DNA from: a virus
DNA length: 64,000 bases
Direction: 5' to 3' (one strand)
IMG/VR virus record: IMGVR_UViG_3300018080_000014
Location: 24,647 to 88,646 of that record
Each line of letters opens with the position of its first letter. Positions within the stretch are counted from its first letter, which is position 1. Position numbers and translations under genes: made by a program. The notes beneath the pieces were generated by a model. The model was given only the letters and a program-made list of their open reading frames with translations. It did no database searches and was not told the origin of the DNA. Shown one piece after another: positions 44,833-62,738 of this stretch.

Positions 44833-45130
44833 TCCAACCTTCTTCCATGTTTTTGAAGGTGAGTATCACGCCAGCATTTTTCAACTTCACGATGTGTATC
44901 TGGTATCCATCTTTTATCGTGCTGTATTCCATGGCAATACCGAGATTCACGAGATCCGTGACGTAGTTGTTCACCGTTGGATACGTCACCCCGAGTAAAT
45001 CCGCTATTTTCCCCTTGGAAAGGGGAGACTTGGAGAGCTCCATGAGCATCTTGACACGATTGCGATTGCTCAGGATTTTCCCCCAGCCTTTTGCATCTGT
45101 TATGGTTTTTATTGTTGCGTGTTCTGACAT
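44822..45130 (-). CDS. ArsR-like winged-HTH regulator
   Basis: LSNRNRVKML..L...PLS..IA..LGVTYPTV..YV..L...GI. Confidence 0.8.
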   Translation of the reverse strand: MSEHATIKTITDAKGWGKILSNRNRVKMLMELSKSPLSKGKIADLLGVTYPTVNNYVTDLVNLGIAMEYSTIKDGYQIHIVKLKNAGVILTFKNMEEGWNDE

Positions 45131-46077
45131 ATCGCCAACCTCGATAGAATTGCTCCGACTTGAATATCACGGTCTCCGCCCATGGCTATATTCATATCCA
45201 CTTCTGCGAACAATTCCGCTAGATCGAATGCCATGGGTCCAAGCAACTCGTGTAGATCCTTGAGGAACCGGCGTATGTTGAATTTTTGCTTCCCGTGCTG
45301 CGACGTGAAATATTTCCGTGCTGCATAGTATCCCTTGACAGCATCCTTCTCGGCGCTTATCTCTGCCAGTATTTTGATGGCGATTGCCTTGGTTGACGAG
45401 GACAAATCCAGATCACTTCCAGTGACCTCGTGCTTTATCCCGATCAGCTTTTCTAGGCAGTCGTTGAACATCTTGCGAATATCACCTTCATAATATGCCG
45501 CGATTTTGTGGCATAATTCGACACTAATCTGGACGCCGAGCGCGTCGGCTTGAGTTTTGAAGTATCCAGCGGCCACGTCATCTGGCAGCGCCTCGAAACG
45601 GAAAATTGCACACCTGCTTTTTATGGCATCGATGTAAGATTCGTCGTTGCCCAAGAAGATGAAACGGCACTTGTCACTATTATCTTCCACGATTGCACGG
45701 AGAGCGTCTTGTGCATCCTTGGTAAGCTTGTCACCTTCATCCAAGATAATTATCCTGTACTTTGCAGATGTTGGTTGTGCTCTGGCAAAATCCTTTATTT
45801 CTCCACGCACGACATCAATTCCGCGTTCGTCGCTAGCATTCTTGATAAGGAGGTCCGGGTGTCCCACATCCCATACATTAAATGGACCATCTTTATTGGC
45901 AAAAAAATGAGATGCGAAGACAAGCGCACTCGTGGTTTTCCCGGAACCGGGTGGTCCCACCATGATCATGTGCGGAAAATCTTCTCTCTCAAGCCATCGC
46001 AGCATTGGTTCCTTGACGAGTTCTTGGCCTTGTATTTCGTCAAACGTGCGTGGCCTAATATCATCCACTATAGTCAT
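45109..46077 (-). CDS. rfcS: Replication factor C small subunit
   Basis: RPRTFDEIQGQ, GPPGSGKTT, NASDERGIDVVR, IILDEGD, AQDALR, SRC. Confidence 0.92.
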   Translation of the reverse strand: MTIVDDIRPRTFDEIQGQELVKEPMLRWLEREDFPHMIMVGPPGSGKTTSALVFASHFFANKDGPFNVWDVGHPDLLIKNASDERGIDVVRGEIKDFARAQPTSAKYRIIILDEGDKLTKDAQDALRAIVEDNSDKCRFIFLGNDESYIDAIKSRCAIFRFEALPDDVAAGYFKTQADALGVQISVELCHKIAAYYEGDIRKMFNDCLEKLIGIKHEVTGSDLDLSSSTKAIAIKILAEISAEKDAVKGYYAARKYFTSQHGKQKFNIRRFLKDLHELLGPMAFDLAELFAEVDMNIAMGGDRDIQVGAILSRLAICQNTQQ

Positions 46078-46459: not shown

Positions 46460-47569
46460 CTAGAAATCAAATGGATCCACCGACGTGCTACCGACTACAA
46501 CTTCCTTCTTCTTGGCAACTGGAGCAGGAGTAACTTTCTTTATCTCTTCCACGTCTTCTTTCTTGTGCTTACGCTGCGAGTTAAACAGCGCAGCTGGAAA
46601 TTTCAACGCGGATCTCCTGCCGGGAGAAGGTAGCGCGGCGAACATCGTCGCTAGAAATTGTTTATTAGTACGGTATACCCATCTATCTATCTTGGCAAGC
46701 TTTCGCAAGAAATCAGATAACTCTTCTGGTTTCCTGAAAAATCTTGCGCAATTGTAATCCAACCATGTGGTCACCCATGCGAGAGGATCTTTCGATTTCA
46801 TTATCCTCCCGAGCCTGCGTTTCACGTTCCTATCTCCGAAAACCGCACCAGCCACCCCTTCGGCGGTGATCTCGATCTCCTTCATGTACGTGCCGGAGTA
46901 CCCGTGTAGCAATCTCCTGATGACGACGCGGAAATCCTCGTCGTACAGCTTTGGAACTTCATGTACCCTGTCCGGGAATGATTGCTCCATGAATTGCCTG
47001 AAATCATCAATGCTTGGCGGGTACATCTTGATTATCTTCCCTTCCTTCTTGAGCATGGACATGATGGTTTTTGGTATCTTGCTAACGTTGTTGCAGGTCA
47101 TGATGATGGATACCTGCGATTCATCAAGGACTTTTTTAAAGTACACGTGGCTTCTCCAGTGAAAATTGTCCGCCTCATCAAAAAGAAATACCACGTCTGA
47201 TGGTGTCCTGTGGGCACCAAACAACGTATTGGCAAGTAACGTGCCAGTTCGCTTGTCGGAGAGATTTATCTTCCGCATTATTTTTCCAGCTTCTCTTATG
47301 GCAAACGTTGCCGATGCTGTCTTGCCAATACCCGGCTCGCCATGTAGAAGAACGTGCTTGTGTTGCTTTATTGCCAGTTGTATGGTATTTATCGTGTCAT
47401 CGTGACCAACCACGAACATGCCCGGTGGAAGGTCTTTGCCAGTATATCCCTTGTATAACTCGGCGGCTTCTGCCATGGTGACACCGACCATATGGCATAT
47501 TTCTTGCATGCTCCATCTGTTTTGGAGCACGTATTTCTTGATCGCCTTGGCCTTGTCCATAGAATTCAC
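46460..47569 (-). CDS. rfcL: Replication factor C large subunit
   Basis: GEPGIGKT, NLSDKRT, LFDEAD, IIMTCN, DFR; Lys-rich tail ending DPFDF. Confidence 0.8.
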   Translation of the reverse strand: MNSMDKAKAIKKYVLQNRWSMQEICHMVGVTMAEAAELYKGYTGKDLPPGMFVVGHDDTINTIQLAIKQHKHVLLHGEPGIGKTASATFAIREAGKIMRKINLSDKRTGTLLANTLFGAHRTPSDVVFLFDEADNFHWRSHVYFKKVLDESQVSIIMTCNNVSKIPKTIMSMLKKEGKIIKMYPPSIDDFRQFMEQSFPDRVHEVPKLYDEDFRVVIRRLLHGYSGTYMKEIEITAEGVAGAVFGDRNVKRRLGRIMKSKDPLAWVTTWLDYNCARFFRKPEELSDFLRKLAKIDRWVYRTNKQFLATMFAALPSPGRRSALKFPAALFNSQRKHKKEDVEEIKKVTPAPVAKKKEVVVGSTSVDPFDF

Positions 47570-47599
47570 TTCTCCTAAGTAGTTAGGATTACAGTAGAT

Positions 47600-47660
47600 C
47601 TATTGTAATGTAGTATTTAAATATCTTTCGATCACACAAAGTTTAAATATGTATAAGGTA
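47600..47660. promoter_or_regulatory. Divergent TATA promoters for replication operons
   Basis: TATTTAAATA (minus) and CAAAGTTTAAATA (plus) between divergent genes. Confidence 0.6.
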
Positions 47661-47693
47661 ATGATCTAATTACCGTCGAGAATTTTTTAATCG

Positions 47694-49214
47694 ATGGAAA
47701 CAGAGGTAAGCGACATGGTAAGCAGGAAACTCTCTAAAGCAGATTTGGAGAAAATTAAACCATGGGCTGAAACCATGGTGGAACGATTCGAGCTGGATGA
47801 TGTCGAGGATGTCATGACAACCATCCAAGACAAGTACGAGGAGTTCTCCAAACGACCCAAGTTTGAAACAAAGCCCAAGGTATTCATCCTTAACAGGGCC
47901 AAATCTGCTGCCAATATAAAGTACACAGGAATTGGAAATCTTGAGCGCATGCTGGCCGTCTTCCTAGGACCCGGTGGTAGACCCAAAAATTGGACCGAGG
48001 AAGATTACAACAAGGTGCTCGAAGCTGCTGCGAAAGGAAGCCAAGCCGATGTGATGCAAATGGCCAAAGAAAGGAAGATAGCAAGCATCAAGGAGGCTCG
48101 TGGAGAAGGTGATAATGTCAGGGAAATACGCATCCCGGTGCGTAAGATTCTTGGCAATGGCAGGCTGGTAAAAACGAGTGCCAAGCCTGTCAACTTCGAG
48201 GTTCGGAAATGGCTTGACGAGGCCAAGACTGTACCGGGATACGAACTATGGACACCCGGTGATCCAGTGATACCTCTTGATACCGACAAGTACTTGTCTG
48301 CTGACAAGAAGAAACCAGTGGAAGAACGCAGGGAAAACTGGAACCACACGAACGTTCTCTTGCCAAATTGGGGCGTGACGATATATGCTCTAATATGGAG
48401 AGGAGATCAGGCAATGCCACATATCGCGCAAATAAAAGTGTACGGTGATGCCGCTGATCCAAACAACAAGGGAAACATAATTGATTACTTTGGATCCAGA
48501 GGCTTGTGGTTACATCCTGTACATTTCAAGGCGGAATTCAACGAGGACAAATCATCTGGCGAGCACTGGGAAATAAGGGTGACTCGTGACAAGTGGGCCG
48601 TGAAACCACTCAAGGGCAAGGAAATAGAGGAATTCGACATGTACGAGAAGGGATATGAGTGGGCATACGAGCCAGACTTCACCGGTGATCCATTTGATGG
48701 TGGCATTGCTGTCCCGACACAATGGGAAGGTGATCTCCCGCCACCATTTGGAATATGCGATCTTGAACATCTGCGTGAATGGCATGAGAAGATACAAACG
48801 ATCTATAATTCCAGTGGCGATGCCTATAAGAGTTATGATCGTGTTGGTATGATGGAATGCACTATCATGGCACAAGCGCAACCAGAAGACGGTAATTCGA
48901 TCAAAATATCCATCAAGGACAACTCTCTCCAGAAGACTCGTTTTTCAGCATTTCTCCCATCCATATTCTCGGAACTCCCTTTTGCAGGTGCCGCGGATGC
49001 ACTTATCTGGTTCACGAGCAAGAAGGGTAAGAAATGGAAAAACCCGGCAACCGGTGAATGGGAAGAAGACAAAACAGGCACGAAAGCAAGCATCAACATA
49101 GGCCTCATCAACATGCTCATCCTCATGGAACATGACGAAGGTGATGGAGAGGATGATGACGTGGAAGAAGTTGATGTAGTGGACGAGGACGCGGAGAACG
49201 AGGTGCGCGTGTAA
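47694..49214 (+). CDS. Putative ssDNA-binding protein with acidic tail
   Basis: Beta-rich, D/E-rich C-terminus, heads the replication operon; no diagnostic motif. Confidence 0.4.
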   Translation: METEVSDMVSRKLSKADLEKIKPWAETMVERFELDDVEDVMTTIQDKYEEFSKRPKFETKPKVFILNRAKSAANIKYTGIGNLERMLAVFLGPGGRPKNWTEEDYNKVLEAAAKGSQADVMQMAKERKIASIKEARGEGDNVREIRIPVRKILGNGRLVKTSAKPVNFEVRKWLDEAKTVPGYELWTPGDPVIPLDTDKYLSADKKKPVEERRENWNHTNVLLPNWGVTIYALIWRGDQAMPHIAQIKVYGDAADPNNKGNIIDYFGSRGLWLHPVHFKAEFNEDKSSGEHWEIRVTRDKWAVKPLKGKEIEEFDMYEKGYEWAYEPDFTGDPFDGGIAVPTQWEGDLPPPFGICDLEHLREWHEKIQTIYNSSGDAYKSYDRVGMMECTIMAQAQPEDGNSIKISIKDNSLQKTRFSAFLPSIFSELPFAGAADALIWFTSKKGKKWKNPATGEWEEDKTGTKASINIGLINMLILMEHDEGDGEDDDVEEVDVVDEDAENEVRV

Positions 49215-50398
49215 TGGGAAAAAGCGTGTTTGCGAGCGGGACCGCGCCAAGTACAAAGGCGAAAAACCCAGAGATGAATGCCAGTGAACAAGCATACGTA
49301 AACACACAAGTCATGACACGCCCCATAGAATTCCAGCCAATCACGGACGAGGAAGGAAACTATATCGATGCAGCGGAAGGTATTAACGTCACGTTCCGTG
49401 GCAAGCAGAAGTTTGGCAAGACGCTGAACGGGTTGCTATGGGGGTACTTCAACTCCGAGTACAAGAGCCAGCTGCGAGCGATGAACCTTGATCATGCCAT
49501 CGAGGTAATGGACCAAGGTGTACTTCCAGAAATAGAGTACATCATTGCCATAGATACCGAGTGTGATATAAAGGCGAATCTTCGACGTGGAAAGATGAAG
49601 CAATTGTGTGGGAAACTCCGCAAGAAGATCAAGCACGTGCCCACGCCACTTCAACGAAAAGTTGAAGGGATGAAGGATGGCAAGGCCGTGACGCTCAACG
49701 CATTGGAGATAGATGCTCAACGCCAGAACATAGAAGCTGCAATCTGGAAAGCCGTGGACACGTTCGGGGAAAACGTCATGATATTCTTCGATTCGGCAAG
49801 CGACTACAAGAAAGCACTTGATGATCTCTCCGACGTGGTGTTCAAGAAAACGGTGAAGACGAGCATGAGTCCTGCGAAAGGAAAGCAGGATACGGAGAAC
49901 GATCCATTCTGGCGTTCCTTTTACCAGTACCGCAACAAGTGGTGGCACAATTCGCTCATCAAGTTGAAATCGTTCCAAGGATGGTGCATCAGTACCATCA
50001 AGGAAGAGGATGTTGAAGAGGAATACCGCGTCGTGTTGGACAAGAACACGAAGAAACCAGTCCTCGATGAAAATGGCAATCAAATCTTCAAGCCTCCAAC
50101 GAAGACGCAGGAAGTAGCTCGCACGGCATTCAGGATCGACCAAGGATATTCCTTCCGCGACAGGTTCAACTTGGAAACAGGTGAGTACGAGCACTGCCTG
50201 AGATGGGACTGGGGAAAGTGGGAGCATCCCGGCGTGAAATCGTTTGACAGGATAGGCAACGACTGGAAACAGGAGCACAAGTGTTACGTGCCGTACCATT
50301 ACAACCACCGTCTCGCGATGATGGAAATCTTGAATGATCTCGGTCCTTCCATCTTAGGTGAATTGGAAGAAGGAAAAACTGATGATGATTTATGGTAA
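49214..50398 (+). CDS. RecA-fold/Sak4-like P-loop ATPase
   Basis: GKQKFGKT, IAIDTE, IFFDS. Confidence 0.65.
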   Translation: MGKSVFASGTAPSTKAKNPEMNASEQAYVNTQVMTRPIEFQPITDEEGNYIDAAEGINVTFRGKQKFGKTLNGLLWGYFNSEYKSQLRAMNLDHAIEVMDQGVLPEIEYIIAIDTECDIKANLRRGKMKQLCGKLRKKIKHVPTPLQRKVEGMKDGKAVTLNALEIDAQRQNIEAAIWKAVDTFGENVMIFFDSASDYKKALDDLSDVVFKKTVKTSMSPAKGKQDTENDPFWRSFYQYRNKWWHNSLIKLKSFQGWCISTIKEEDVEEEYRVVLDKNTKKPVLDENGNQIFKPPTKTQEVARTAFRIDQGYSFRDRFNLETGEYEHCLRWDWGKWEHPGVKSFDRIGNDWKQEHKCYVPYHYNHRLAMMEILNDLGPSILGELEEGKTDDDLW

Positions 50399-50604
50399 GC
50401 CCGTTGAACGAGAATGATGCGATTGCGCTGGATATTATTTCCACTTATGGGCCAGTATGTAAGAGCGATGCGCCACAATATGGAATGCCAGCAACAACTT
50501 TCCAAAATCATGCAAAGAAGCTGGAAAGATTGGGAATTGTCAAGTCATTCAAGTTGCCACAAGCAGGGCGCGGATCGCCAAAAACAATGTACGAGGTAAA
50601 ATAA
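50392..50604 (+). CDS. Small winged-HTH protein
   Basis: MPATTFQNHAKKLERLGIV...GRGSPKTMY. Confidence 0.7.
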   Translation: MVSPLNENDAIALDIISTYGPVCKSDAPQYGMPATTFQNHAKKLERLGIVKSFKLPQAGRGSPKTMYEVK

Positions 50605-51522
50605 ATGCCACGGTTTAACACGGATAAGAATACGCTGGAAACCTTTGTCAATGCTATCAAGTGCGAAGGTATTACCAGCGTGGATAGTGACAAGGTAAAG
50701 AGCGGCACTCTCTTCAACGATTTTGTGCTCGACGTGAAGGAAGATGCCGTGTATTGTAATGCCACGGATACCAAGTCACACAAGGTAATAGCACAGCACG
50801 TGCTGAAAGACGTGGAGATAGTCGAAGAAGGTGAGATATACGTCACCGATACCGGAAACTTCGTCAAGGCAATGGACAGGTGTGGCGGTGGTAAAGGTGA
50901 CAGGATTTCAGTCTTGTATCCAGACGAGTACAACGGGATAACCATTCAGAGAATGGGGACAAAGACCGCGTTCTCCTTCCCGACGCAGGGAAAGAAGGAC
51001 GTGACGTCACTGGAAAGGACAACAAACATACCACATGTGTGGGACGACGAAGCAAAGAACGTGCTATCGACATCGGCAAAGAGCGGAAAAAGTTTTCACT
51101 GGCAGCACAAGCTTATAGCTGACCCGGATGACCTCGCGGAGATTGCCAAGGACATGAAGGATTTTGTCAAGCAAAAAGTGGTCACCATGACAATATCCAA
51201 TGGAGAAGTGCTGTTCAATCTTGGAAATATATCTTCCACGAAGAAAGGAAAGCGGCAACTATTCGCAAGCGTGAGACAGGAATTCAAGGATGGAAAATGG
51301 ATGCCAGCCGAGGAAGGTGCAGAAGACATAGTCAGCAACTACTACCACGGGTTCTACGCGGTGATACAGAACATACCATCAAAGCAGCCAATGGAACTAT
51401 ACTTTGGCAAGTTTGGAAATGGATACATGGTTTGGATCAGGAGCTTTAGCAGCAAGATGGATCTTCATTACTTGGTTCCCCACGACGCGGGGCTAGAACC
51501 AAAGAAAGAGACCAAGAGTTGA
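50605..51522 (+). CDS. Divergent PCNA-like sliding clamp
   Basis: Clamp-like pattern (LDVKEDAVYCNATD, EGEIYV...FVKAM...DRISV, second domain DLAEIAKDM...VTMTI); context of RFC and PolB. Confidence 0.7.
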   Translation: MPRFNTDKNTLETFVNAIKCEGITSVDSDKVKSGTLFNDFVLDVKEDAVYCNATDTKSHKVIAQHVLKDVEIVEEGEIYVTDTGNFVKAMDRCGGGKGDRISVLYPDEYNGITIQRMGTKTAFSFPTQGKKDVTSLERTTNIPHVWDDEAKNVLSTSAKSGKSFHWQHKLIADPDDLAEIAKDMKDFVKQKVVTMTISNGEVLFNLGNISSTKKGKRQLFASVRQEFKDGKWMPAEEGAEDIVSNYYHGFYAVIQNIPSKQPMELYFGKFGNGYMVWIRSFSSKMDLHYLVPHDAGLEPKKETKS

Positions 51523-51892
51523 ACATCTCCAACGCCCCGAGGAGAATAAATAAAAGGGGCGCCCACATAGGGCATGCACCAGAAACCATCAAAATCACAC
51601 ACCCTTTATCCATTTGGATTGTAAGCTTCATCCCGCAAACATTTCCCACGCTACTTTTGATGGCTGGATAGCATGGTAAAAGTAATGCTGGTCTTCAAGC
51701 AGAAGACACTTTCAAAGGAACAGGTCATGTCTGGCATGACCGTGGAAAAAAGCACGAACGTTGAATTAACCATAACTATACCAGATGGAATGAAACTTTC
51801 CAAGGTCATTACCGACAAGGAAGTGGTGGACATGACACTACGAGAAAAGCGGCCGCCACTAAAACCAGTGAAATTACCACCATTAAAACCAA

Positions 51893-52059
51893 TGCAGGGT
51901 AGGGAAGCAGATAACCCGCGAGGCTCATAACCGCTTCCACGTCCGGCCCACAGGTTGGGAACTTCGTGGCACGAATGATCGGCAGCTCATTGGATAATGA
52001 TGCCGATTGAGTGGCGGAGAGAGACCTTGAGATCGGTGGTGCAACTCCACCCCCTGCAA
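51893..52059 (+). tRNA. tRNA-Met(CAT), initiator-like, with 94-nt intron at 37/38
   Basis: Acceptor TGCAGGG/CCCTGCA, D stem GGG/CCC, anticodon stem CGAGG/CCTTG, loop CT-CAT-A|A, T arm GGTGG-TGCAACT-CCACC; intron 51930-52023 with relaxed BHB; CCA not encoded. Confidence 0.8.
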
Positions 52060-52253
52060 CTTTAAAATGGTGATAAACATGGGATTATTCGGTTGTAAAA
52101 ATTGGGAACCAAAGAAATGTGTTCGATGCGGTGCTGCTTGGGGCATGTCAGATTGCTTCGAGCGGATAGATTTTGCCAGCAAGGAAGAAGCCGAGGCTTT
52201 CTACAAGTCAAAAGGTGGCAAGGGAGCATCTGAACCGATGAAGGTGTGATGAA

Positions 52254-52403
52254 ATGATACAAGTTGAATGCCCCGAATGCGGGATTGACATGGAATTATT
52301 GCATCCTCCAAGTGATCACTTGTTCGAGTGCGTAGCATGTGGCAGGCGATACAGCATGAACAAGATGACTCGCGAGCTTGTAATGGTAAAGGGTGCGGAT
52401 TAG
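52254..52403 (+). CDS. Zn-ribbon microprotein (49 aa)
   Basis: MIQVECPECG...FECVACG. Confidence 0.55.
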   Translation: MIQVECPECGIDMELLHPPSDHLFECVACGRRYSMNKMTRELVMVKGAD

Positions 52404-52407
52404 GTGA

Positions 52408-52842
52408 GTGTACATGCGAACAATATGCCTATCAACATCGACAACGCTGGATCACGAGAAGATCCGGCCATTATACGAGAAAATCATTAGTGCCAATAGG
52501 AGGTGCGCGTTCTTCATTGACCGCACGAACCCCGTGCTCGAAGAAATGATAAAGAAATACAGGTGTCGCAAGATGCGGTTTCATCTCCAGCGAGCACTCA
52601 TGCGAGCTCGTGCAGCGTATGCTGATAGGGCAAAAAGAATCGTGGAGAAGGCCCAATCTTGTTATTGCGTGGTTGATAGCAAGGACAAGTATGCGGGACC
52701 AGTAGAAATAGCAGTGGAATTTATGGAAAGACATCCAGATCTCCACATAGAAATATATTTTGTTACTGGAGGAGAATGGAAACAGGTAACGATGCGAGAA
52801 GCGAGGAAAGGTACTCCATGGGATACGTTCCTATCCAAATAG
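52408..52842 (+). CDS. Possible SLOG/YspA-like Rossmannoid protein
   Basis: R...IVEKA..CYCVVDSK...GP pattern loosely matches the SLOG C-terminal motif. Confidence 0.35.
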   Translation: MYMRTICLSTSTTLDHEKIRPLYEKIISANRRCAFFIDRTNPVLEEMIKKYRCRKMRFHLQRALMRARAAYADRAKRIVEKAQSCYCVVDSKDKYAGPVEIAVEFMERHPDLHIEIYFVTGGEWKQVTMREARKGTPWDTFLSK

Positions 52843-55800
52843 AGAACGCCGATTACTCGGAAGAGATCGGCGAGGCAGTGCTACACATTACTGGATACGC
52901 CCGAGATGGGAGTAGGCACTATGTTGTCATACATGGAGAAGGCATCTATCCTTCTTTTGGTGTTCCATACGAGGAATTCTGGCTCATAAAGGATGACCCG
53001 AGGATAGTGGATTACTGGCGCGGACCTGATTCACCACTCGGTGAGCCCGTCATGGAAGTGAGGACGAAATTGCCAAGCGATATAGGAACGGGACAGGATG
53101 CGCTTCGCAATTACACGTCGCACTCGTACCAAGGGGACATCAAGTACTTCAAGAAATGCCTCACGCAGCTCGGGTTCTTTAACGGGTATTTCCAGTATGA
53201 TGATGCATACTTGGAGCATGATAAAATAGCATATCATCATCCCGCATTCAAGGTGCATGCGCATGTTCACACGGATCACGTCAAGCCATTACCAGATAGC
53301 GAGCGGTTCTTTGCCCAGAAAACAAAGGTGTACTGGGACACGGAATGGGACATGAGCGAGCTCAAGAACGAGTATGGTGAATTCAGGGGCTCGCAGCTGG
53401 ATAAAAACCATGATTGGAAACGTAGCAGGATGATAACCGTGGTATTTTATGAGTTTAAATACCAGAAATATGTCGCGTTTACATGGCATCCCCTGCTCAG
53501 GAAGGAAGTACACGACATGGAGGATTACATCAGCAGGATTGACGAGAAAATCCGCAACAAGATAAACATTCCTGAAAAATATACCAGTGAAGTAAACGGG
53601 TTCTTGGATGAAAGCACCATGTTCGATGCTATCATCGAGTACCTGCACGTGGTATCACCTGGATGCTTGCTTGGTTATAATTCGGCTGGTGGTATACATG
53701 GCAAGGGTGATGACAAGCACTGGATAAACGGGTTCGACATGCCGTATTTCTTTCTAAGGGCCGAGCATCTCAAGAAGCCAGTAAACAGGTTGAGCCCCAT
53801 GGGATCGGCGTACAAGCAATTCAGGAAAGGATGGGAGGAATTCTTCGTTAACATAAAGCTGGTGACGCAGTTCGATTTGTGGCATTCTGCCGAGTTTTTT
53901 GATATAACGTGGAAAGACTACTGGATAAAGAACAAGAAGCTTGACACGTTAATGTACAATTACTTGGGTATAGGGAAGGTAAAACATATAGGGCACGTAT
54001 GGGAACAGTGGCTGGAAGATCCATATCACGAGCGATATTATTGTACGGGTGATGTGGAGGGCACGTTCGCGCTGGATGTCATGTTTAACATGAGCGAGGA
54101 TGGATACAATAGGGCCATGATGTCTGGCACAGTGTGGGAAGATTACCAGTTCGCATCAAAGCTGCACGACCAAATCAACCTTCGCCTGTACAAGGACTTG
54201 TATTTCTTGGACACTAAGTGGCAAAAGGTAAGGGATATTGCCACGGGACACAAGATAAAAACGGAAGAACACGAGCATGGTATAAGGTGGAGACGTGACT
54301 GGATTACCAACCACATAGGAATAGAAGTGGAAAAGAAAGGTGGATACGTACCTGTACCAATCATAGGATTGCATGAAGGCGTCGTGGTGATAGACTTCAA
54401 CAAGTTCTATCCAAATTCCGCCATGGCTGCCAACTGTGGTCCAGAAACATTCGTTAACGTCAAGAAGCTCCGGTTCAAGAAGGCCGACACTGATATTTAT
54501 GGCGATGCAGAAGGTGTCAGGATACGCATTCCGAACATGGGAATAGAAGTGGTGGAACTTCGCCCCTTTCTCAGGCGGGAAATCGAGGATTGGGAGGAAG
54601 AAATGCGAAAGGCGCGTGCTGCCGTGGGGAATAACGTGTATGATCTCCACGAGTATTTCAAGAACGAGCTGATAGAATGGAAAGAAGTTGCGCATGATTG
54701 GAATGATTTGAACAGGACACCATCTGGATTCTTCTTGAAGACACCAACGGCAAAGAATACGATTGCTTTCGAGGAATTGCTGCGAAAGAGAAAGGAAATG
54801 CAGAAGCTTGCCAAGGATAGGCTTGCTGAGGTTGGTGATAAGAATGATTGGATGTACAAGGTATATGATTTACTCCAGTTTTCATTCAAGGGTCTAACCA
54901 ATGCGCGGTTTGGTATCACTGGAATGATGGCGGATAGGTTATACATGCTTCCAATATTTAATACGTTCACGCTTGTCGCACAAACACTTATCCGGGAATG
55001 CATACGATACATGGAAGAAGATCTTGAATATACCATTGTTGGTGGTGATACTGATAGTGTCTTTATCAAGCTCAAGAAGAAACTGGACCTGAAGCGTGAG
55101 GTTTTGGACAACGGGAGAGAAAGATGGTACTCCGTGGAAGCCGACACGTTGTGTAACATGCTAAACAAGCACGTGTGGGAGCATGCACAGCAGGAGTTCA
55201 ACTTCGACCGCAACACGTTCAACATGGACGTTGAAGATATTAGTGGATATTTTTATATCCATACTAAAAAGCACTACGTCAAGGCCGTGCTGGTTCGTGA
55301 AGGGGTGAAGTTCGATCACCCTGTTCTCATGTGGAAAGGATTGAAGCGTGTTAGCAGGTCAACATCACTCTGTACAGATGATATTCAAGATGCCTTGGGC
55401 GCAATAATCCTAAAGGGTGGCACGCTTGATGATGCCATACAATACATCATGAAGATACACGAGGAGTTCAATAACTACGAGCCAATGTACCTGTGCAAGG
55501 TATTGCCGTTGAAAAGACCACTTAGCAAGTACTCGAAAAACGGGGAAACGTGGAAAGCATACACGCTTGCTAACCAGTATTTCAATGCTGGATATGGCCT
55601 TGGAGCACGTGCGTTTATCGGCAGGCTTAAATATTGCCCGCCCAAGATAAAAGGGAGAAAAGTCAATCCTCAGCTTGGAGATGTCATAGCATTCGATGAG
55701 AGGATGTTGCCTGAAATAAAGGAAGCTGGATTGGTATTTGATTACGATGAATTGGAAGACAAGGCTGCTGCGGCAGCTGCGAATGAGTTACTCGCAAGAT

Positions 55801-55862
55801 TTGATACGTCATATTGGGATGTGCTGGAAGATGTCAGGACATACGACCCTTGGGAATTCTAA
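52776..55862 (+). CDS. polB: Family B DNA polymerase with 3'-5' exonuclease
   Basis: WDTE, GYN...FDMPY, YCTGDV; DFNKFYP, KGLTNARFG, GDTDS, KKHY. Confidence 0.95.
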   Translation: METGNDARSEERYSMGYVPIQIENADYSEEIGEAVLHITGYARDGSRHYVVIHGEGIYPSFGVPYEEFWLIKDDPRIVDYWRGPDSPLGEPVMEVRTKLPSDIGTGQDALRNYTSHSYQGDIKYFKKCLTQLGFFNGYFQYDDAYLEHDKIAYHHPAFKVHAHVHTDHVKPLPDSERFFAQKTKVYWDTEWDMSELKNEYGEFRGSQLDKNHDWKRSRMITVVFYEFKYQKYVAFTWHPLLRKEVHDMEDYISRIDEKIRNKINIPEKYTSEVNGFLDESTMFDAIIEYLHVVSPGCLLGYNSAGGIHGKGDDKHWINGFDMPYFFLRAEHLKKPVNRLSPMGSAYKQFRKGWEEFFVNIKLVTQFDLWHSAEFFDITWKDYWIKNKKLDTLMYNYLGIGKVKHIGHVWEQWLEDPYHERYYCTGDVEGTFALDVMFNMSEDGYNRAMMSGTVWEDYQFASKLHDQINLRLYKDLYFLDTKWQKVRDIATGHKIKTEEHEHGIRWRRDWITNHIGIEVEKKGGYVPVPIIGLHEGVVVIDFNKFYPNSAMAANCGPETFVNVKKLRFKKADTDIYGDAEGVRIRIPNMGIEVVELRPFLRREIEDWEEEMRKARAAVGNNVYDLHEYFKNELIEWKEVAHDWNDLNRTPSGFFLKTPTAKNTIAFEELLRKRKEMQKLAKDRLAEVGDKNDWMYKVYDLLQFSFKGLTNARFGITGMMADRLYMLPIFNTFTLVAQTLIRECIRYMEEDLEYTIVGGDTDSVFIKLKKKLDLKREVLDNGRERWYSVEADTLCNMLNKHVWEHAQQEFNFDRNTFNMDVEDISGYFYIHTKKHYVKAVLVREGVKFDHPVLMWKGLKRVSRSTSLCTDDIQDALGAIILKGGTLDDAIQYIMKIHEEFNNYEPMYLCKVLPLKRPLSKYSKNGETWKAYTLANQYFNAGYGLGARAFIGRLKYCPPKIKGRKVNPQLGDVIAFDERMLPEIKEAGLVFDYDELEDKAAAAAANELLARFDTSYWDVLEDVRTYDPWEF

Positions 55863-55865
55863 GAG

Positions 55866-56468
55866 GTGTACAAAATGCTACAAATGGAAGAACCTGATCC
55901 GGGAAGAATAACCGCGTTCGTGAGTGGTAGTTGGAAGGACAAGGACTTGGTATCAGAAGTCATCCAGTACCTGTGGGATAGAGGCATACATATAACACAT
56001 GACTGGACGAATGACAGGGACATGCTGTGGAGCAATATACAGGTAAGAGAAGCGATAAAGAAGGCAAAATATTTTGTACTCGTCAACGGGCCAGATCCAA
56101 CGCAAGGAAAGGCATGGGAGTGCGGCCTTGCTGATGCGTGGGAAATTCCAATCATCGTGCTCGGTGAGCCAATAACCAACAGCTTCTATTACAGGCCTGT
56201 AATACACGAGAAAATAGATAAGAATACGGATATTGGTGCAGTTGCCGCGGATTGCATCATAGCAGTCGATATGTTTATTTCCCTTAGTGGAATGAACCCC
56301 GGCGAGGCGCTTGAGTATGAATTGGTAAAGAAAGACCCGTACACGTGGAATCTGAAGCGCATGGAACGTGCAGTTGCTAACATGACAAAGGCAATGCTCA
56401 CGATAAATCCAGAAGGTGGGTTGCTCGGTGATCCAGACGGGTTCAAGGACAAAAAGTCCCCTACCTAA
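55866..56468 (+). CDS. Nucleoside 2-deoxyribosyltransferase-like protein
   Basis: FVSG.W, HDW, GKAWECGLA...IPIIVLG. Confidence 0.7.
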   Translation: MYKMLQMEEPDPGRITAFVSGSWKDKDLVSEVIQYLWDRGIHITHDWTNDRDMLWSNIQVREAIKKAKYFVLVNGPDPTQGKAWECGLADAWEIPIIVLGEPITNSFYYRPVIHEKIDKNTDIGAVAADCIIAVDMFISLSGMNPGEALEYELVKKDPYTWNLKRMERAVANMTKAMLTINPEGGLLGDPDGFKDKKSPT

Positions 56469-56527
56469 CTTCGCCGCTACCGGGTGTAATTGAACGATAA
56501 AATGCAGTTTTACGAGATGGGGACACG

Positions 56528-56869
56528 ATGCCACGAGACAAACAAGCAGGAAAAAAATACCTCCAAGACGACTCGACAAAAAAGCTCGGTTCGGTAGATA
56601 ATGTCGAACCACCTCCATGTATACCAGACTTAGCAGGAGTGCCCACTATAGATTGGAGAATATATGTGGATTGTCGAATAAGCAGGTTCGAGTCTGCCAT
56701 AGAATCAATAGCCACACTCTTGGGCAAAAATGCGCACAAGAAAGTAGCAGCAGTGGAAAGGTTGAAAGGAGAATGGCAAAGGGTCCAAGGAGAATACCAA
56801 GATCAAAAACGATACACGGCATTTGGAATGAAAGCGCTGAAATTGCTGGAGGTGCTATGGGATGATTAG
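56528..56869 (+). CDS. Hypothetical protein
   Basis: 113 aa, coupled to the next gene. Confidence 0.55.
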   Translation: MPRDKQAGKKYLQDDSTKKLGSVDNVEPPPCIPDLAGVPTIDWRIYVDCRISRFESAIESIATLLGKNAHKKVAAVERLKGEWQRVQGEYQDQKRYTAFGMKALKLLEVLWDD

Positions 56870-57551
56870 ATGCAGGTTTTGCGACAGGATAATGCGCAGC
56901 GTTTACGAGGACACCGATTCAATCTTGGCAATATGCGATACGCCGGGTTGTCAGAACAATCCAAGAACCAATTACAACAAGCAAGAGGAAGATAAAGGAT
57001 TCGTCAGGCTAACTGACCTGTACCCGCAAGGTCCAGAGGTTTCCCGTGATATTGGTGACAACGTGTTCTTGCTACGATTTTGCGACAGGATAATGCACAT
57101 GGGATTCGCAATGGAACCACAACACTGGGAAGATGCGCATGCACCAATTCTTCCCACATCTCGTGCCATGGAGGAGGCAACGAGAGCAATAGAAAGACGC
57201 ATCGAGGCAGATACCATCAATTGTATTGCTGGAGAGCGGTTCATCGATCCGCCTACCTGTGAACAATGTGATCCCGAGGTAGTGGAGGATGCGCATGATG
57301 ATCTTGTAGACGCACTCGAACATGCGCTGGTGACACCTAGGCAGGAAGAAATGCGTGAACGGGAAACAGAATCACGCAGGTTGCAACCAATGCACTTTTT
57401 CTCATGGAGCCTGTCGGCGCCAGCCATCCGCATGCACAATGGATCGAGGATTTGTATCATGGATTCGCAATACGATCCAAGTCCAGTACGTGGACACAGT
57501 GCAAGGGTTATCATGGATGATGAAGACGAGGAGGATGACGATGACGGGTGA
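56862..57551 (+). CDS. Mosaic protein: Zn ribbon + MCP-like segment + terminase-like motifs
   Basis: Segments align by eye with ORF 17221-17607, MCP ~99-153, and TerL nuclease and Walker B motifs. Confidence 0.7.
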   Translation: MIRCRFCDRIMRSVYEDTDSILAICDTPGCQNNPRTNYNKQEEDKGFVRLTDLYPQGPEVSRDIGDNVFLLRFCDRIMHMGFAMEPQHWEDAHAPILPTSRAMEEATRAIERRIEADTINCIAGERFIDPPTCEQCDPEVVEDAHDDLVDALEHALVTPRQEEMRERETESRRLQPMHFFSWSLSAPAIRMHNGSRICIMDSQYDPSPVRGHSARVIMDDEDEEDDDDG

Positions 57552-57804
57552 CGTGATACGCCTGATAGACCTGTACCCGGAGCTTGGTGATCTCCATGCA
57601 CACGATGACGAGATTATATGCTTCGTTTTCAATGGCAGGACCAAAAGGTTATCATTGGGTAATATCAGGATCTCGCTGTGGATTGGTAACGCCATGTGCC
57701 CTGTACACCACGTGACGTTCGATGACAGGAGGCAGCGTGGCGTGCTAGCGGTGAACGAGACGGAATATGGTCATAGAGGATGTGGATTCGTTGATCAATT
57801 ATAG
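57541..57804 (+). CDS. Hypothetical protein
   Basis: GGAGG SD; VIRLIDLYPE resembles FVRLTDLYPQ in the upstream gene. Confidence 0.5.
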   Translation: MTGDVIRLIDLYPELGDLHAHDDEIICFVFNGRTKRLSLGNIRISLWIGNAMCPVHHVTFDDRRQRGVLAVNETEYGHRGCGFVDQL

Positions 57805-58459
57805 CAGGAATAGCGGAAGGACAACCGCGGCGATGAACGATGCCATAGAAGTGGCAAACACTGGCACGAGGATACGATTCGTATGTTCCAGTACGAAGCA
57901 ATGCAGCTATGCGAGGAGCATGTTAAAACAGGCCGGTAGTGATCCGTTCTTGTCACCATGTGATCGTCCAGAATTTATAGAAATAATCACCGCTAACCAG
58001 CTTGACTATGAATGTAACGTATCTATCCGCCAAGGAATACGAACCATCCTCGATCACCACGTGTGGGAACTGATGGAAGATGGCAAGTTTAGATACCTGC
58101 ACGAGGAAATCATGAAGCATGGAGATTTTTTCGAGTTATTGCTACATCCCGTCGGGTCGCCATACGAGAACGATGCCGATCCAACCATGTGCAGGATGAC
58201 CGACGTGTACAAGGAAGAATGGGAAAAGGAAATAGAGAACGAGATAAGCGAGCTGCGAGTAGAGGATGGTCAGGAAGACATAATAGATGCGATCTCTGAC
58301 AAGTTTGGCATAGAAATATCCATGAACGATACAAACAAATCCGTTTTATCAAAAATGACACGAGTAATGGCATCAACAATGGAAAATTTGGAAATGGCAA
58401 TGAGAGAAATATTTAGAATGGAAAAGCGCATACACGAGTTGGAAAACGATGATAGTTGA
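57767..58459 (+). CDS. Degenerate terminase-ATPase-like domain plus coiled coil
   Basis: SRNSGRTTAA (Walker A with K to R), IRFVCSSTKQ, TILDH. Confidence 0.55.
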   Translation: MVIEDVDSLINYSRNSGRTTAAMNDAIEVANTGTRIRFVCSSTKQCSYARSMLKQAGSDPFLSPCDRPEFIEIITANQLDYECNVSIRQGIRTILDHHVWELMEDGKFRYLHEEIMKHGDFFELLLHPVGSPYENDADPTMCRMTDVYKEEWEKEIENEISELRVEDGQEDIIDAISDKFGIEISMNDTNKSVLSKMTRVMASTMENLEMAMREIFRMEKRIHELENDDS

Positions 58460-58715
58460 AATATTCAACTGGATAGCCTGCGTGATGGCAGTACTTGGTT
58501 CACTCACGCTGGCATGCAAGGCTGATAACATGCGAGGATGGATCATATATACAATAGCAGCAGTGGCAGGAATCATTTATTTTTCCATGACTGGAAACTG
58601 GCCACAGCTTGGAGTCTGGTGCATGTTCCTGTTCAACGACATCCTTGCCATGAGAAGGAAACTGCGAACAAGTAAAGATGATGACGCGCCACGAGTGATG
58701 TGGAAAAAATATTGA
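58449..58715 (+). CDS. Small 3-TM membrane protein (PnuC/SemiSWEET-like size)
   Basis: WIA...AVLG..L......GW pattern; three hydrophobic helices. Confidence 0.5.
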   Translation: MIVEIFNWIACVMAVLGSLTLACKADNMRGWIIYTIAAVAGIIYFSMTGNWPQLGVWCMFLFNDILAMRRKLRTSKDDDAPRVMWKKY

Positions 58716-59092
58716 ATGATATACAAAAGGATCTTGAAGATGCGTTCAAGAACATCAAGAATTTCGGTGATCTTGCCCCTTCAAATATATGGATGACCAA
58801 GAAAACGGCAACAATGATAAAGGAACACCGTGTACCTCCACACGTACCACGCATGGTGGATCATTACACGAGGCCTAGATTCATGCCGCGATGGAAGTGG
58901 TACTTCCTGAGATGGTTCGATGATTTCAAGCAAGAACTTGCCACGATGAAATGGAGACAAGGAGGCAAACCAAACCACGGCATTCTGTACATGCCCGGAT
59001 TCTTCATAAACAGCACGGTGGCGAGACTGCTGGAAACAGCATGCGAGCCCATGTACCACGGCCCGGGTGAAAGGAAGGGTAATGAAAAATGA
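58700..59092 (+). CDS. Protein with N-terminal MCP A-domain-like fragment
   Basis: DIQKDLEDA...FGD...KKTATMIKEHRV vs MCP DPFKDMDNA...LGD...TKTAKILKNHDV. Confidence 0.6.
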   Translation: MEKILNDIQKDLEDAFKNIKNFGDLAPSNIWMTKKTATMIKEHRVPPHVPRMVDHYTRPRFMPRWKWYFLRWFDDFKQELATMKWRQGGKPNHGILYMPGFFINSTVARLLETACEPMYHGPGERKGNEK

Positions 59093-59322
59093 TCAAGGAT
59101 AAATCCACGCACGAGCTGCTATACATTTTATCACAGAAGGGACATTGCTGGTACAACGAGACGAAATGCTACAGGATATTCAACGAGCTGGTAGATAGGA
59201 TTGATGATGATGAAAGAAGAAACCTGTCCGTGGCATTATCACACATGTACTCATGCGGGGAAGGACCAATGGAACTGATAGACATATGCAAGGAATTGAT
59301 GGAGAAGTACAAGGATGATTAG
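59089..59322 (+). CDS. Small helical hypothetical protein
   Basis: Coupled on both sides. Confidence 0.55.
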   Translation: MIKDKSTHELLYILSQKGHCWYNETKCYRIFNELVDRIDDDERRNLSVALSHMYSCGEGPMELIDICKELMEKYKDD

Positions 59323-60190
59323 AAGCCCGATAAAATGGTTTGGTGGAAAGAGCTGGCTGGTGGAGAAAATCATCAGCTACATACCACGAGAATGTGACGT
59401 GGTAATAGAAGCATTTGGTGGAGGAGCATGGCTGACGCTCAATCTTCCTCTTGGGCGGTTCAAGGTAATCATATGCAACGACATCAACGACCTGCTCATA
59501 AATTTCTGGATGGTCCTAAAGAATTCACACGCGGAACTGAAGGATGCTGCCATGCATGTACCAGATAGTGAGGTGGTATATGGGCATTTCGAGGACGTGA
59601 TAAACCATGGTGTACCGTACTTGGAAAAACTGGAAGATCCCGTGGAGATGGCACTGGCATTCTTTTACTTGAATACGCACAGTTATTCTGGCATACACAC
59701 GGGATTCCACGGGTTGAACTTTTCCACGCCTACGCAAAACCAACGAGCATACTTGTCAAAAATAGACCTATTCGAGGATATATGGTCCAGAATAAAATAC
59801 GTTACATTTAAAAACACTGACGTTATAGACCTGTTGAAGTCTGCTGATCGTGATAATGTTTTCATTTACTTGGACCCGCCATACTTCCAAGGTGGTGAAG
59901 TCTATGAATCCATCCATGGTGGCAAGCCGTGGGGCGAGGAAGATTTTTTCCGCCTGAGGGAAAGATTGTGGGAAATGGAGCATGCAAAAATACTCGTGTC
60001 CATCGATCAAGGAGAGTATTTCAAGAAGGAAGGGTGGCACATGGAGGAGATAGAGAAGACGAAAAAGCTGCGAGCAGAAGCAAAGATTGGAAGAGAAACG
60101 TTGGTGATGAATTACGAGCCTATTGGAATGGTTGAAAATGGAGAAAAAACACAGGCAGGAAGCACGGCAGCAGACCCGTGGTACTTCTAA
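59315..60190 (+). CDS. Dam-like (D12 class) N6-adenine DNA methyltransferase
   Basis: SPIKWFGGK, EAFGGG, NDIN..LINFW, YLDPPY; ends DPWYF. Confidence 0.9.
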   Translation: MIRSPIKWFGGKSWLVEKIISYIPRECDVVIEAFGGGAWLTLNLPLGRFKVIICNDINDLLINFWMVLKNSHAELKDAAMHVPDSEVVYGHFEDVINHGVPYLEKLEDPVEMALAFFYLNTHSYSGIHTGFHGLNFSTPTQNQRAYLSKIDLFEDIWSRIKYVTFKNTDVIDLLKSADRDNVFIYLDPPYFQGGEVYESIHGGKPWGEEDFFRLRERLWEMEHAKILVSIDQGEYFKKEGWHMEEIEKTKKLRAEAKIGRETLVMNYEPIGMVENGEKTQAGSTAADPWYF

Positions 60191-60464
60191 GAATTTGGTA
60201 CATGAGATAGACGAGGCAATAGACGAGTTCCGCGAGCAGCATTTCAGGCAACCGGAATTCCTGCTCTTGAATTACCGCACGGCATTTGTTGTCAAGAAGG
60301 AGATTGGCGAAAGGATGAAATACATCGTTGATGCCCGTAACAACCTTATTGGATCCACGTACAGGGGATTGGAGGTTTTTGAATGTGGAATGGACATACC
60401 GTTTATAGTTATTGGTGGTAATATTACAAAGTTACTGAGATATGCAAGAAGGGAATACATATGA
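60138..60464 (+). CDS. Stand-alone HK97 A-domain-like small protein
   Basis: EIDEAI...PEFLLLNYRTA...ERMKYIVD...YRGLEV vs MCP DMDNAV...QLFIGTKTA...ERIKYVRD. Confidence 0.55.
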   Translation: MEKKHRQEARQQTRGTSKNLVHEIDEAIDEFREQHFRQPEFLLLNYRTAFVVKKEIGERMKYIVDARNNLIGSTYRGLEVFECGMDIPFIVIGGNITKLLRYARREYI

Positions 60465-61741
60465 CAATACTACATGGCGACTGCTTCCAGTTGGTGAAAT
60501 CCGTACCCCATGAAACGTTCCACGCTATCGTCACGGACCCACCATACGGGATTGAATGGCTGAATAACGATTGGGATAAGCCAGACAAACTGTGGGATAA
60601 GCGGCAGACAGACTACCCTTCAGCACGCGGTACAGATGGTAAAGCCAACCTTAACGAATACGAAGCTGGAGAGAAGTTCTATTTTTGGTTTTCCCCTATT
60701 GCACGAGAAATGCAGCGGACACTAAAAACGGGAGGTAGTTGCTTTGTATTTTCATCCACGAGAACACTGCACCATCCGATGCGATGCTTGGAAGAGGCAG
60801 GATTTTTGATAAAGGATGTCCTGATGTGGAATTACCATACTGGATTTCCCAAGGCAATAAGTGTCCCCTTTCTTGTTGACAAGCGTGCGGGAATTGTTAG
60901 CACGAGTGACCCGAATGGACACACGGCTGTTTCCCAAGCGGCACAGGAACATGAAGGATGGGTGGTAGGTCGTGCCAAGCCAGCATGGGAACCAATTATA
61001 TGGGCGACAAAGCCATGTGATACAGCCATAGACTGCATGCTTGAAGACGGTATAGGTGGTATAAATGTTGGAGAAACGAGAATACCGGTGAACCCGGAGA
61101 TCGATGACATGAAACGCACGGTGATCCGCCAGCCACGCCATCCTGATAACGTGCTTAATTTCGATGACGCCGGTATCGGTGACAAGAAGGAGATGTTCAC
61201 CGGTGTCAGGGAGGAAGGTAGATTCCCGGCAAACGTGGTAGTGGTAAATGGTGAGATATTGGGAAAGCCGAAATTTAATATAATGTATGGCATACGGAAA
61301 GATGACCAAGTAATAGATATACCTAAACCGGACAGGAGCGAAAGGGACATGGGATTGGAAAACTGCTCCCACAACCCCATCTCGGGCGACGTGTGGGACA
61401 AGAAACTTGTATGCGCATCATGTGGAAAGAGTGTCAGGAAGCCGAAGACGACATGCGGATGTGGCAATCCTGTACTACAGTGGAAAAAATCGAAAAGAAA
61501 GGTGGTAAGGAATACCCATCCAACCGTGAAACCAATCGCGCTGTTCGAGCATCTTGTACGTCTCGTGACGAGAAGGGGGCAAGTTGTTGCCGATTTCTTT
61601 GAAGGATCTGGAACGTGTGCGATAGCATGCAAGAAAACTGGACGCGAGCACTGGGGAGCGGAACAGGATGAGGAGTACTACAACTTGGCCACGTCACGCG
61701 TGGCAAACCTATTCAATACATATGACCCGTGGGATTTTTGA
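60461..61741 (+). CDS. Beta-class amino-DNA methyltransferase with Zn-ribbon insert
   Basis: GDC, VTDPPY, GFPK, KPAWEPI, GRFPAN, HPTVKP, DFFEGSGT; ends DPWDF. Confidence 0.9.
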   Translation: MTILHGDCFQLVKSVPHETFHAIVTDPPYGIEWLNNDWDKPDKLWDKRQTDYPSARGTDGKANLNEYEAGEKFYFWFSPIAREMQRTLKTGGSCFVFSSTRTLHHPMRCLEEAGFLIKDVLMWNYHTGFPKAISVPFLVDKRAGIVSTSDPNGHTAVSQAAQEHEGWVVGRAKPAWEPIIWATKPCDTAIDCMLEDGIGGINVGETRIPVNPEIDDMKRTVIRQPRHPDNVLNFDDAGIGDKKEMFTGVREEGRFPANVVVVNGEILGKPKFNIMYGIRKDDQVIDIPKPDRSERDMGLENCSHNPISGDVWDKKLVCASCGKSVRKPKTTCGCGNPVLQWKKSKRKVVRNTHPTVKPIALFEHLVRLVTRRGQVVADFFEGSGTCAIACKKTGREHWGAEQDEEYYNLATSRVANLFNTYDPWDF

Positions 61742-62025: not shown

Positions 62026-62738
62026 GAATATCAAAAGTCAGCAACCAAGGCATGGCAGAGTTCGATGATGGCATATCAGCGATAGTATTCTTCTGCGGAT
62101 GCGATCTCGATTGCCCGTTCTGCCATAACGACAAGCTGATAAAGCTGGAAGATTGCCCGAAAAATGATTACGAGGCATGGGAAGCGGCGGAACTCATAAA
62201 GCTTGACATGGTGGATTGGGTATCGCTCACCGGTGGAGAGGTGCTTGTACAATCAGATTTTGGAACCGTGCGAAACATGATCGAGTACGTGAAAAGCAAA
62301 GGCAAGAAAGTAAACATAGATACCAACGGATTCATACGCAACGGATCGCCAAAGTGGAAGAATCTAAAGTCTATTGCTGGCATGCTTGACTGCATAAGCG
62401 TGGATATAAAGATGCAGAAAGTACAAACGAACACGTACCTGAACATGCATACATGGCTTGATGGCTTGCGTGTTCGAGATAAAACAAGATTTCGCATGGT
62501 AGTGCTGGAAGAAGTATCGGATGTATATTTCGCGAATCATACCATGAAGTTTTTCAAGTATAATGGTATAAAACGAATTGAACTGCTTCCAAATTCCATG
62601 CTCGGGAGAGGTGTGCAATTTTCGCGAACATCGAAAGAATTACTTGGACAGATTGCCACGTTTTATTCCGACAATGGAATTTCTACAGGACCAACGGAAA
62701 GCTTAAATACGAGTAATCATACAGGAGCTCGAGGCTAA
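62022..62738 (+). CDS. Radical SAM protein, glycyl-radical activase (NrdG/PflA)-like
   Basis: GCDLDCPFCHN, LTGGE, IDTNG, SVDIK. Confidence 0.8.
   Translation: MRISKVSNQGMAEFDDGISAIVFFCGCDLDCPFCHNDKLIKLEDCPKNDYEAWEAAELIKLDMVDWVSLTGGEVLVQSDFGTVRNMIEYVKSKGKKVNIDTNGFIRNGSPKWKNLKSIAGMLDCISVDIKMQKVQTNTYLNMHTWLDGLRVRDKTRFRMVVLEEVSDVYFANHTMKFFKYNGIKRIELLPNSMLGRGVQFSRTSKELLGQIATFYSDNGISTGPTESLNTSNHTGARG

Follow-up and report, generated by a model that had tools for sequence, protein, structure and literature searches.

The 64,000-nucleotide stretch analysed here, referred to throughout as the window, covers positions 24,647 to 88,646 of the IMG/VR virus record IMGVR_UViG_3300018080_000014 and constitutes the last 64 kb of a single-contig virus genome of 88,646 bp. 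Between window positions 46,460 and 61,741 it carries four long genes whose unrelated products end in the same short peptide. The first, on the reverse strand, encodes a large-type AAA+ clamp-loader subunit of 369 amino acids (46460–47569) with the C-terminus GSTSVDPFDF (tail DPFDF at 46463–46477); it matches PF00004 with an expect value (E) of 5.6e-9 and the PHROG clamp-loader family phrog_168 at 9e-17, aligned up to residue 293 of 369, and its tail is preceded by a linker of about 75 residues rich in K, E and V. The other three genes lie on the forward strand. A family B DNA polymerase (PolB) of 1028 amino acids (52776–55862), with matches to PF00136 (3e-18) and to phrog_262 (6e-55, aligned to residue 1010 of 1028), ends in VRTYDPWEF (tail DPWEF at 55845–55859). 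A D12-class (Dam-like) N6-adenine DNA methyltransferase of 291 amino acids (59315–60190) ends in GSTAADPWYF (tail DPWYF at 60173–60187); its PF02086 match (3e-23) finishes at residue 238 and its phrog_56 alignment at 271 of 291, so that the tail is borne on an extension of about 20 residues, and the protein continues for about 24 residues past the shared strand motif after which the P-SSM2 Dam ends within about 7. Finally, an N6_N4 (beta-class) DNA methyltransferase of 426 amino acids (60461–61741), matching PF01555 at 6e-32 up to residue 411, ends in FNTYDPWDF (tail DPWDF at 61724–61738).

The shared ending is confined to the C-termini of these proteins. When the window was scanned as stop-to-stop open reading frames (ORFs) of at least 30 amino acids (n = 1204), the pattern DP[WF]xF was present in four of them, each time at the extreme C-terminus of a long gene, and no internal copy was found in any frame. 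Extending the scan to the whole genome adds a fifth C-terminus, that of a 194-amino acid protein encoded outside the window, upstream of its position 1 (genome positions 439–1035), which ends in TCTFDPFDF. The looser pattern DP[WFY]x[FWY] yields 9 matches among the 1638 ORFs of the whole genome; five are the same C-termini and the other four are internal and contain Y, three of them in short ORFs. Given the virus's own amino-acid frequencies, 0.0009 C-terminal occurrences of the motif would be expected in the 114 genes called in the whole genome, against five observed, and 0.22 occurrences would be expected anywhere in 27,031 positions, against the same five, all terminal. The codons of the tails vary (GAT or GAC for D, CCG, CCA or CCT for P, TTT or TTC for F), and because they differ the tails are not copies of one DNA segment, so that an origin by DNA duplication is rejected. 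The evidence supports a real, position-specific motif under selection. Furthermore, the family alignments stop before the C-terminus in all four enzymes of the window, at the residues given above (411–417 of 426 for the N6_N4 methyltransferase), ending 9 to 76 residues short of the protein end, and the tail is therefore, as judged from these alignments, an appendage on a linker, outside the catalytic domains.

The fifth tailed protein belongs to no family found in Pfam or PHROG. Its gene sits between that of an NrdG-like radical-SAM protein and those of a PD-(D/E)XK exonuclease and a primase-like protein, and among its seven relatives the tail, T-x-D-P-F-(G)-D-F, is the best-conserved stretch. 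A fold model built from five sequences had a mean predicted local distance difference test score (pLDDT) of 43.6 and was unusable. Searches of a protein atlas with this protein and with a conserved 506-amino acid protein discussed below gave best feature scores of 0.79 and 0.83 and template-modelling (TM) scores of at most 0.38, all in the range expected by chance. Three further proteins with loosely similar endings were not counted as clients. ThyX (genome positions 7786–8601) ends in YDNLEVF, which loosely fits the six-residue pattern D-x-hydrophobic-x-x-F; its L009 orthologue (L009:15124–15903), which is 84% identical, ends alike, so that the ending may be plain ThyX sequence, and the protein is either a sixth client or an ordinary ThyX. 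A 394-amino acid protein ends in GKTDDDLW, an ending that its orthologues do not keep, and a 515-amino acid structural protein ending in GDDEF is a looser candidate.

Related loci were recovered from five metagenomic viruses, including those denoted here L006/L008, L009, L010/G001 and L011, and PolB homologues at 38–59% identity were found only in metagenomes. The gene order is maintained in these relatives, running from the small loader subunit, a small ORF and the large loader subunit through the 506- and 394-amino acid proteins and a small winged-helix-like ORF to the clamp discussed below, the polymerase and the D12 methyltransferase. Twelve PolB homologues have an intact C-terminus, and in each of them the last residue is F or W, preceded by an acidic or small one (FDPHDF, FDPTAW, FDPFAW, FDATAW, FDATEW, VDVDDF, NPFGDF, DTFGEF, NTHGEF, NTHGDF, DPFGEF and DTTGEF); a further homologue, P0014, which matches 71% of the query and is apparently incomplete at its C-terminus, was left out. 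Without exception, the large loader subunits (six, all with F), the D12 methyltransferases (five) and the relatives of the 194-amino acid protein (seven) likewise have a terminal F or W. The conserved core thus comprises a hydrophobic residue, D or N, then P, T or A, and, after two or three residues that vary, an aromatic residue with a free carboxylate at the very end; at position -3, H, T, L, F or W is found in the relatives.

In four relatives the polymerase and unrelated proteins of the same virus share a tail, and the D12 orthologues of L006/L008, L009, L010 and L011 each carry the tail type of their own genome. In L008, PolB ends in TFDPFAW, the loader in AFDPFSF, the D12 methyltransferase in TFDPLQF and an N6_N4 methyltransferase in NIFEATTW, the latter having no BLAST match to the proteins of the genome studied here. 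The corresponding L009 endings are MNPFGDF (PolB), ADPFGDF (loader), QNPFEEF (D12) and LDPFGDF (relative of the 194-amino acid protein), and those of L011 are ANTMGDF, VSTFGEF, AETTGEF and SDPFGDF. In L010/G001 the polymerase ends in ANTHGDF, the loader in KMNLDDF, the D12 methyltransferase in ADTGGDF and the relative of the 194-amino acid protein in ADPFGDF. The same virus encodes a zinc-ribbon-like ORF of 61–73 amino acids (L010:15286–15507; G001:17520–17705) that ends in ANTFGDF and for which no counterpart was found in the studied genome. Across the 71-kb G001 record, G-[DE]-F followed by a stop codon occurs four times on the forward strand, always at the end of a client gene, and the reversed pattern, used as a control, does not occur. 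The tail type switches jointly in all client families, one clade having hydrophobic-D-P-x-x-[FW] and its sister x-x-x-G-[DE]-F, and in the PolB tree the five-residue type (seven sequences) is split from the six-residue type (five sequences) by a single branch with support of 100/100.

The original prediction, made from the window's sequence, had described four unrelated proteins with the same terminal peptide in different codons, and the genes and endings it gave are confirmed, as are its assignments of PolB and the two methyltransferases (PF00136, PF02086 and PF01555). Its label RFC-L stands insofar as the protein is an AAA+ protein with a PHROG clamp-loader match. The polymerase and the small loader subunit are nearest to T4-like gp43 and gp44. 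A scan of the genome and its relatives, which it had proposed, revealed the fifth client and showed the tails to be conserved, with variation, in orthologues; the motif is hence not limited to four proteins, as this genome has a fifth client and the relatives have further ones. DP[WF]xF is a real terminal motif, but the core that is conserved is hydrophobic-D-P-x-x-[FW]-COOH, the aromatic residue at -3 being variable.

Between the loader and polymerase genes, an ORF on the forward strand (50605–51522; 305 amino acids) had been read in the same prediction as a divergent clamp. It has no match in Pfam, PCNA models included, or in PHROG, and by sequence it falls in none of the PCNA, DnaN or gp45 families. 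An AlphaFold2 model built from eight sequences, with a mean pLDDT of 70.2, consists of two similar beta-alpha-beta halves. In a Foldseek search of the PDB, 474 of the best 500 matches had E values of at most 0.001 (best E, 1.4e-7), and the matches listed were all PCNA, bacterial beta clamps or clamp complexes, among them, by their PDB titles, 1ISQ (RFCL clamp-binding peptide with PCNA) and 3A2F (PolB with PCNA); VIA-align superpositions on beta clamps gave Z scores of 11.7–13.7. Its family is a rare one: among 1.84 billion representatives searched with the profile, 35 proteins were found at E of at most 0.001, and none of 10 distant members scanned reached a Pfam cut-off, one of them giving a faint match to DNA_pol3_beta (E 0.053). 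In every relative seen the gene lies between the loader and polymerase genes. On its predicted fold and its gene context, the ORF is accepted here as a divergent two-domain sliding clamp, which bears out the earlier proposal at the level of modelling and fold search, and it is the proposed receptor of the tail. The virus also encodes a small, gp44/RFC-S-like clamp-loader subunit of 322 amino acids (45109–46077, reverse strand), which carries no tail; it matches PF13177 at 6e-13 and phrog_168 at 4e-39, and shares 28.7% identity with gp44 of T4-like cyanophages over 97% of its length.

The shared peptide is read here as a tail by which the clients dock on one receptor, because it is terminal, is appended outside the folds and is kept on orthologues at about 40% identity, and because it has been gained by unrelated methyltransferases and has changed jointly across clients. 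The identity of that receptor, and with it every functional consequence, is what we infer. We judge it reasonably likely, by analogy with the gp45-binding tails of T4, that the tail docks onto the virus's own clamp, and binding between the two is predicted. Two of the tail carriers, PolB and the large loader subunit, are of kinds long known to grip clamps through a C-terminal peptide: B-family polymerases are described as often binding clamps via a short C-terminal motif (PMC3201878), and archaeal PolB and the RFC large subunit as holding the clamp by a C-terminal peptide (PMC4929162; titles of PDB entries 1ISQ and 3A2F). In the clamp-docking model, the docking tail would be [small]-[hydrophobic]-D-P-x-x-[F/W]-COOH on a flexible linker, or x-[D/N]-[P/T]-x-G-[D/E]-F-COOH in the sister clade, and it would insert into a hydrophobic pocket of the viral clamp (50605–51522), which is predicted to be ring-shaped. 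Loading of this ring would fall to the virus's AAA+ clamp loader with its two subunits, the large one of which would grip it by its own tail; the polymerase would use its tail for processivity, and the two methyltransferases and the 194-amino acid protein would ride clamps on fresh DNA, so that the viral genome would be methylated at or just behind the fork.

Several observations weigh against this model. The contact between tail and clamp is itself inferred, and other proteins conserved in every relative, including the 506-amino acid, 394-amino acid and primase-like proteins, could equally be receptor candidates. The clamp model is of moderate confidence (predicted TM score 0.52, with three of the five models having mean pLDDT values of 38–51), and its superpositions have root-mean-square deviations of 18–20 Å and TM scores of 0.23–0.31, the domains being recognised but their mutual arrangement not. 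A profile of the clamp family against the PDB retrieved clamps at E values of 0.11–0.31, which are not significant, and comparison with P-SSM2 gp45 gave a probability of 0.6%. As to the tails, the G001 loader ending, KMNLDDF, is without the G that is typical of its genome, and a third DNA methyltransferase in the window (43160–44212, reverse strand), with a partial PF01555 match and a match to phrog_18146, ends in EWVLDFAR and has no tail; it may act off the replisome. The joint change of the tail types is a single event on one tree branch and could in part be due to shared ancestry, as opposed to co-evolution occurring repeatedly. A complex prediction combining three copies of the clamp (residues 1–285) with the C-terminal 35-residue piece of the D12 enzyme scored 0.43, 0.42 and 0.38 in its runs and 0.02, 0.26 and 0.00 in its controls; the margin to the best control being below 0.20, it is counted neither for nor against binding.

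An unlikely alternative, and the one that best survives, is that the tail docks on another viral hub, be it the 506-amino acid protein, the 394-amino acid protein (either possibly of a single-stranded DNA-binding protein (SSB) or helicase type) or the primase-like protein. These candidates are as conserved and syntenic in all relatives as the clamp is, and they belong to no known family. Moreover, the orthologues of the 506-amino acid protein carry a conserved acidic C-terminal tail of their own, a feature of hub-type SSBs. In SSB-type hubs, however, the tail is on the hub and not on the clients, which counts against this alternative, and the clamp is the protein that B-family polymerases and large loader subunits both hold by a C-terminal peptide in known systems. 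With regard to the candidates themselves, the gene of the 506-amino acid protein (47694–49214), which adjoins the clamp, specifies the ending ENEVRV here and EEPDV, ERPDV, EKPDV or ESPEV in the orthologues, and this acidic tail could represent another docking code, possibly carried by a hub of the SSB kind; the conserved 394-amino acid protein is encoded at 49214–50398.

The 88,646-bp contig begins and ends with the same 123 or so bases, suggesting that the genome is complete, as a circularly closed or terminally redundant assembly. Further gene products include a terminase, a portal-like protein, an HK97-type capsid protein and a baseplate protein, as well as NrdD and its radical-SAM activase, ThyX, a PD-(D/E)XK exonuclease and a primase-like protein; the virus is a tailed virus of an anaerobe. 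The closest known polymerases, at 23–24% identity, are those of Rhizobium and Agrobacterium phages, T4-like cyanophages and haloviruses. A scan of genome contigs with the PolB profile for a provirus or host returned 11 pattern matches, none of them confirmed, and the terminase gave weak matches to two phage records only. Directly 3' of the polymerase gene, a 200-amino acid ORF (55866–56468, forward strand) contains an internal DPYTW and has a weak match to TIR_2 (E 3.5e-4) below the Pfam cut-off. At the end of the window, an ORF similar to DUF4132/DUF7737 proteins (62738–64000) is open at its 3' side and runs off the window end, which is also the contig end.

The tail might also bind a host clamp (PCNA or beta) instead of, or besides, the viral one, drawing viral enzymes to host forks or competing with host clients. 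Hydrophobic C-terminal tails are a general currency of clamp binding, and the polymerase of phage IC12, ending in NDLDLF, resembles some of the tails described here. We nonetheless find this quite improbable: the tail type drifts among related viruses that each have their own divergent clamp, a pattern that fits a private, co-evolving receptor better, and the motif is unlike both QxxLxxFF and the QL[SD]LF type. A role as a C-terminal degron, or as a signal for localisation or virion packaging, that co-regulates DNA enzymes is very improbable. In its favour, hydrophobic C-terminal peptides that are short and end in a free carboxylate can mark proteins for proteases or chaperones, and the clients, all of which act on DNA, might have to be removed late in infection. 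Against it, no protease or adaptor gene of matching conservation was found among the proteins scanned (part of the genome's genes), a polymerase and a clamp loader would be unlikely objects of degradation or packaging, and the strict retention of the tail on polymerase orthologues matches the precedent of clamp tails.

The motif is well founded, and the clamp as its receptor is a prediction. If the tail does bind the clamp, it would provide a simple sequence rule for finding replisome clients, the family of the 194-amino acid protein included, in viruses whose clamps escape sequence recognition. Viral anti-restriction methylation would then be coupled to the fork, instead of being left to diffusion, and such coupling would bear on the speed with which new genomes are protected from host defence. 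On the same premise, the five- and six-residue tail types and their cognate clamps would form a natural system for the study of hub–client co-evolution, and an orthogonal clamp-and-tag pair could be used as a tethering tool.

The gp45-binding tails of T4, as far as the sequences indicate, are a better precedent than archaeal PCNA-interacting protein (PIP) boxes, because the small loader subunit and the polymerase have their closest counterparts in T4-like gp44 and gp43. In T4 and RB69, the C-terminal tails of gp43, gp55 and gp33 and an internal loop of T4 ligase, which holds an internal copy of the clamp-binding motif, bind gp45 (PMC2988020, PMC7892883 and PMC6212786 for the set as a whole; PMC6212786 and PMC7892883 for the ligase). 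In both systems, polymerase and non-polymerase clients share a short peptide, hydrophobic and acidic, that forms the very end of the chain and follows a variable linker; the virus studied here likewise encodes a loader pair and a clamp-fold protein (the latter by model and fold search), with a small loader subunit distantly gp44-like and a polymerase distantly gp43-like. The differences are also clear. The T4 motif is LDFLF (PMC6212786), whereas it is hydrophobic-D-P-x-x-[FW] here; the clamp has no detectable sequence relation to gp45 (probability 0.6%, as above); an AAA+ protein serves as second loader subunit; methyltransferases and a 194-amino acid protein, not transcription factors, are the clients; and binding, predicted here, has been measured in T4.

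The original prediction had classed the tail as a non-canonical PIP box. PIP boxes (Qxx[LIM]xx[FY][FY]) resemble it in being C-terminal on PolB and the large loader subunit, and in serving many clients of one clamp (PMC4929162). The tails, however, have no Q (0 of 5 has one seven residues before the end) and lack an aliphatic residue at position 4, and instead of forming an adjacent pair their aromatic residues are separated by one residue, so that the classification does not hold; their most conserved position is a terminal aromatic with a free carboxylate, and the clamp, unlike those of PIP systems, goes unrecognised by the PCNA models of Pfam. Among distant homologues, the PolB of halovirus HRTV-2 ends in the PIP-like QSGLGAFI, and the reference polymerases S-RSM4 g43 and that of phage IC12 have hydrophobic tails of other sequence (IGSFFE and NDLDLF). 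The same prediction's phrase "orthogonal to host PCNA" presupposes an archaeal host, and no host of any kind was found in the PolB-profile scan.

With respect to methylation, the nearest parallel is DNMT1, also a DNA methyltransferase with a clamp-binding motif, which in the present case is putative. DNMT1 maintains cytosine-C5 methylation and binds cellular PCNA through a PIP motif at its N-terminus, whereas the enzymes described here are two predicted N6/N4-type methyltransferases of a prokaryotic virus whose tails are C-terminal and presumably directed at the viral clamp. A full-text literature search, outside whose coverage subscription journals lie, found no paper reporting a clamp-binding tail on a DNA methyltransferase from any bacterial or archaeal virus. 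In a review of clamps, the clamp-binding motif of DNMT1 is linked to preferential methylation of newly replicated DNA, and DNMT1 on PCNA is the sole clamp-tethered methyltransferase named (PMC9690074).

The system thus appears to work like the T4 motif set and the clients of PIP boxes, and by its sequences is a member of neither. At its broadest, the interpretation is that a rare lineage of tailed viruses evolved its own clamp, unrecognisable by sequence, together with its own code, hydrophobic-D-P-x-x-[FW]-COOH, which shifted once, in step, on every client and would place N6/N4 methyltransferases, among them unrelated ones that were gained separately, and a 194-amino acid factor on the replisome. 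We give this interpretation an even chance of being right; under it, viral DNA would be methylated as it is replicated, in a prokaryotic-virus counterpart of the tethering of DNMT1 to PCNA.

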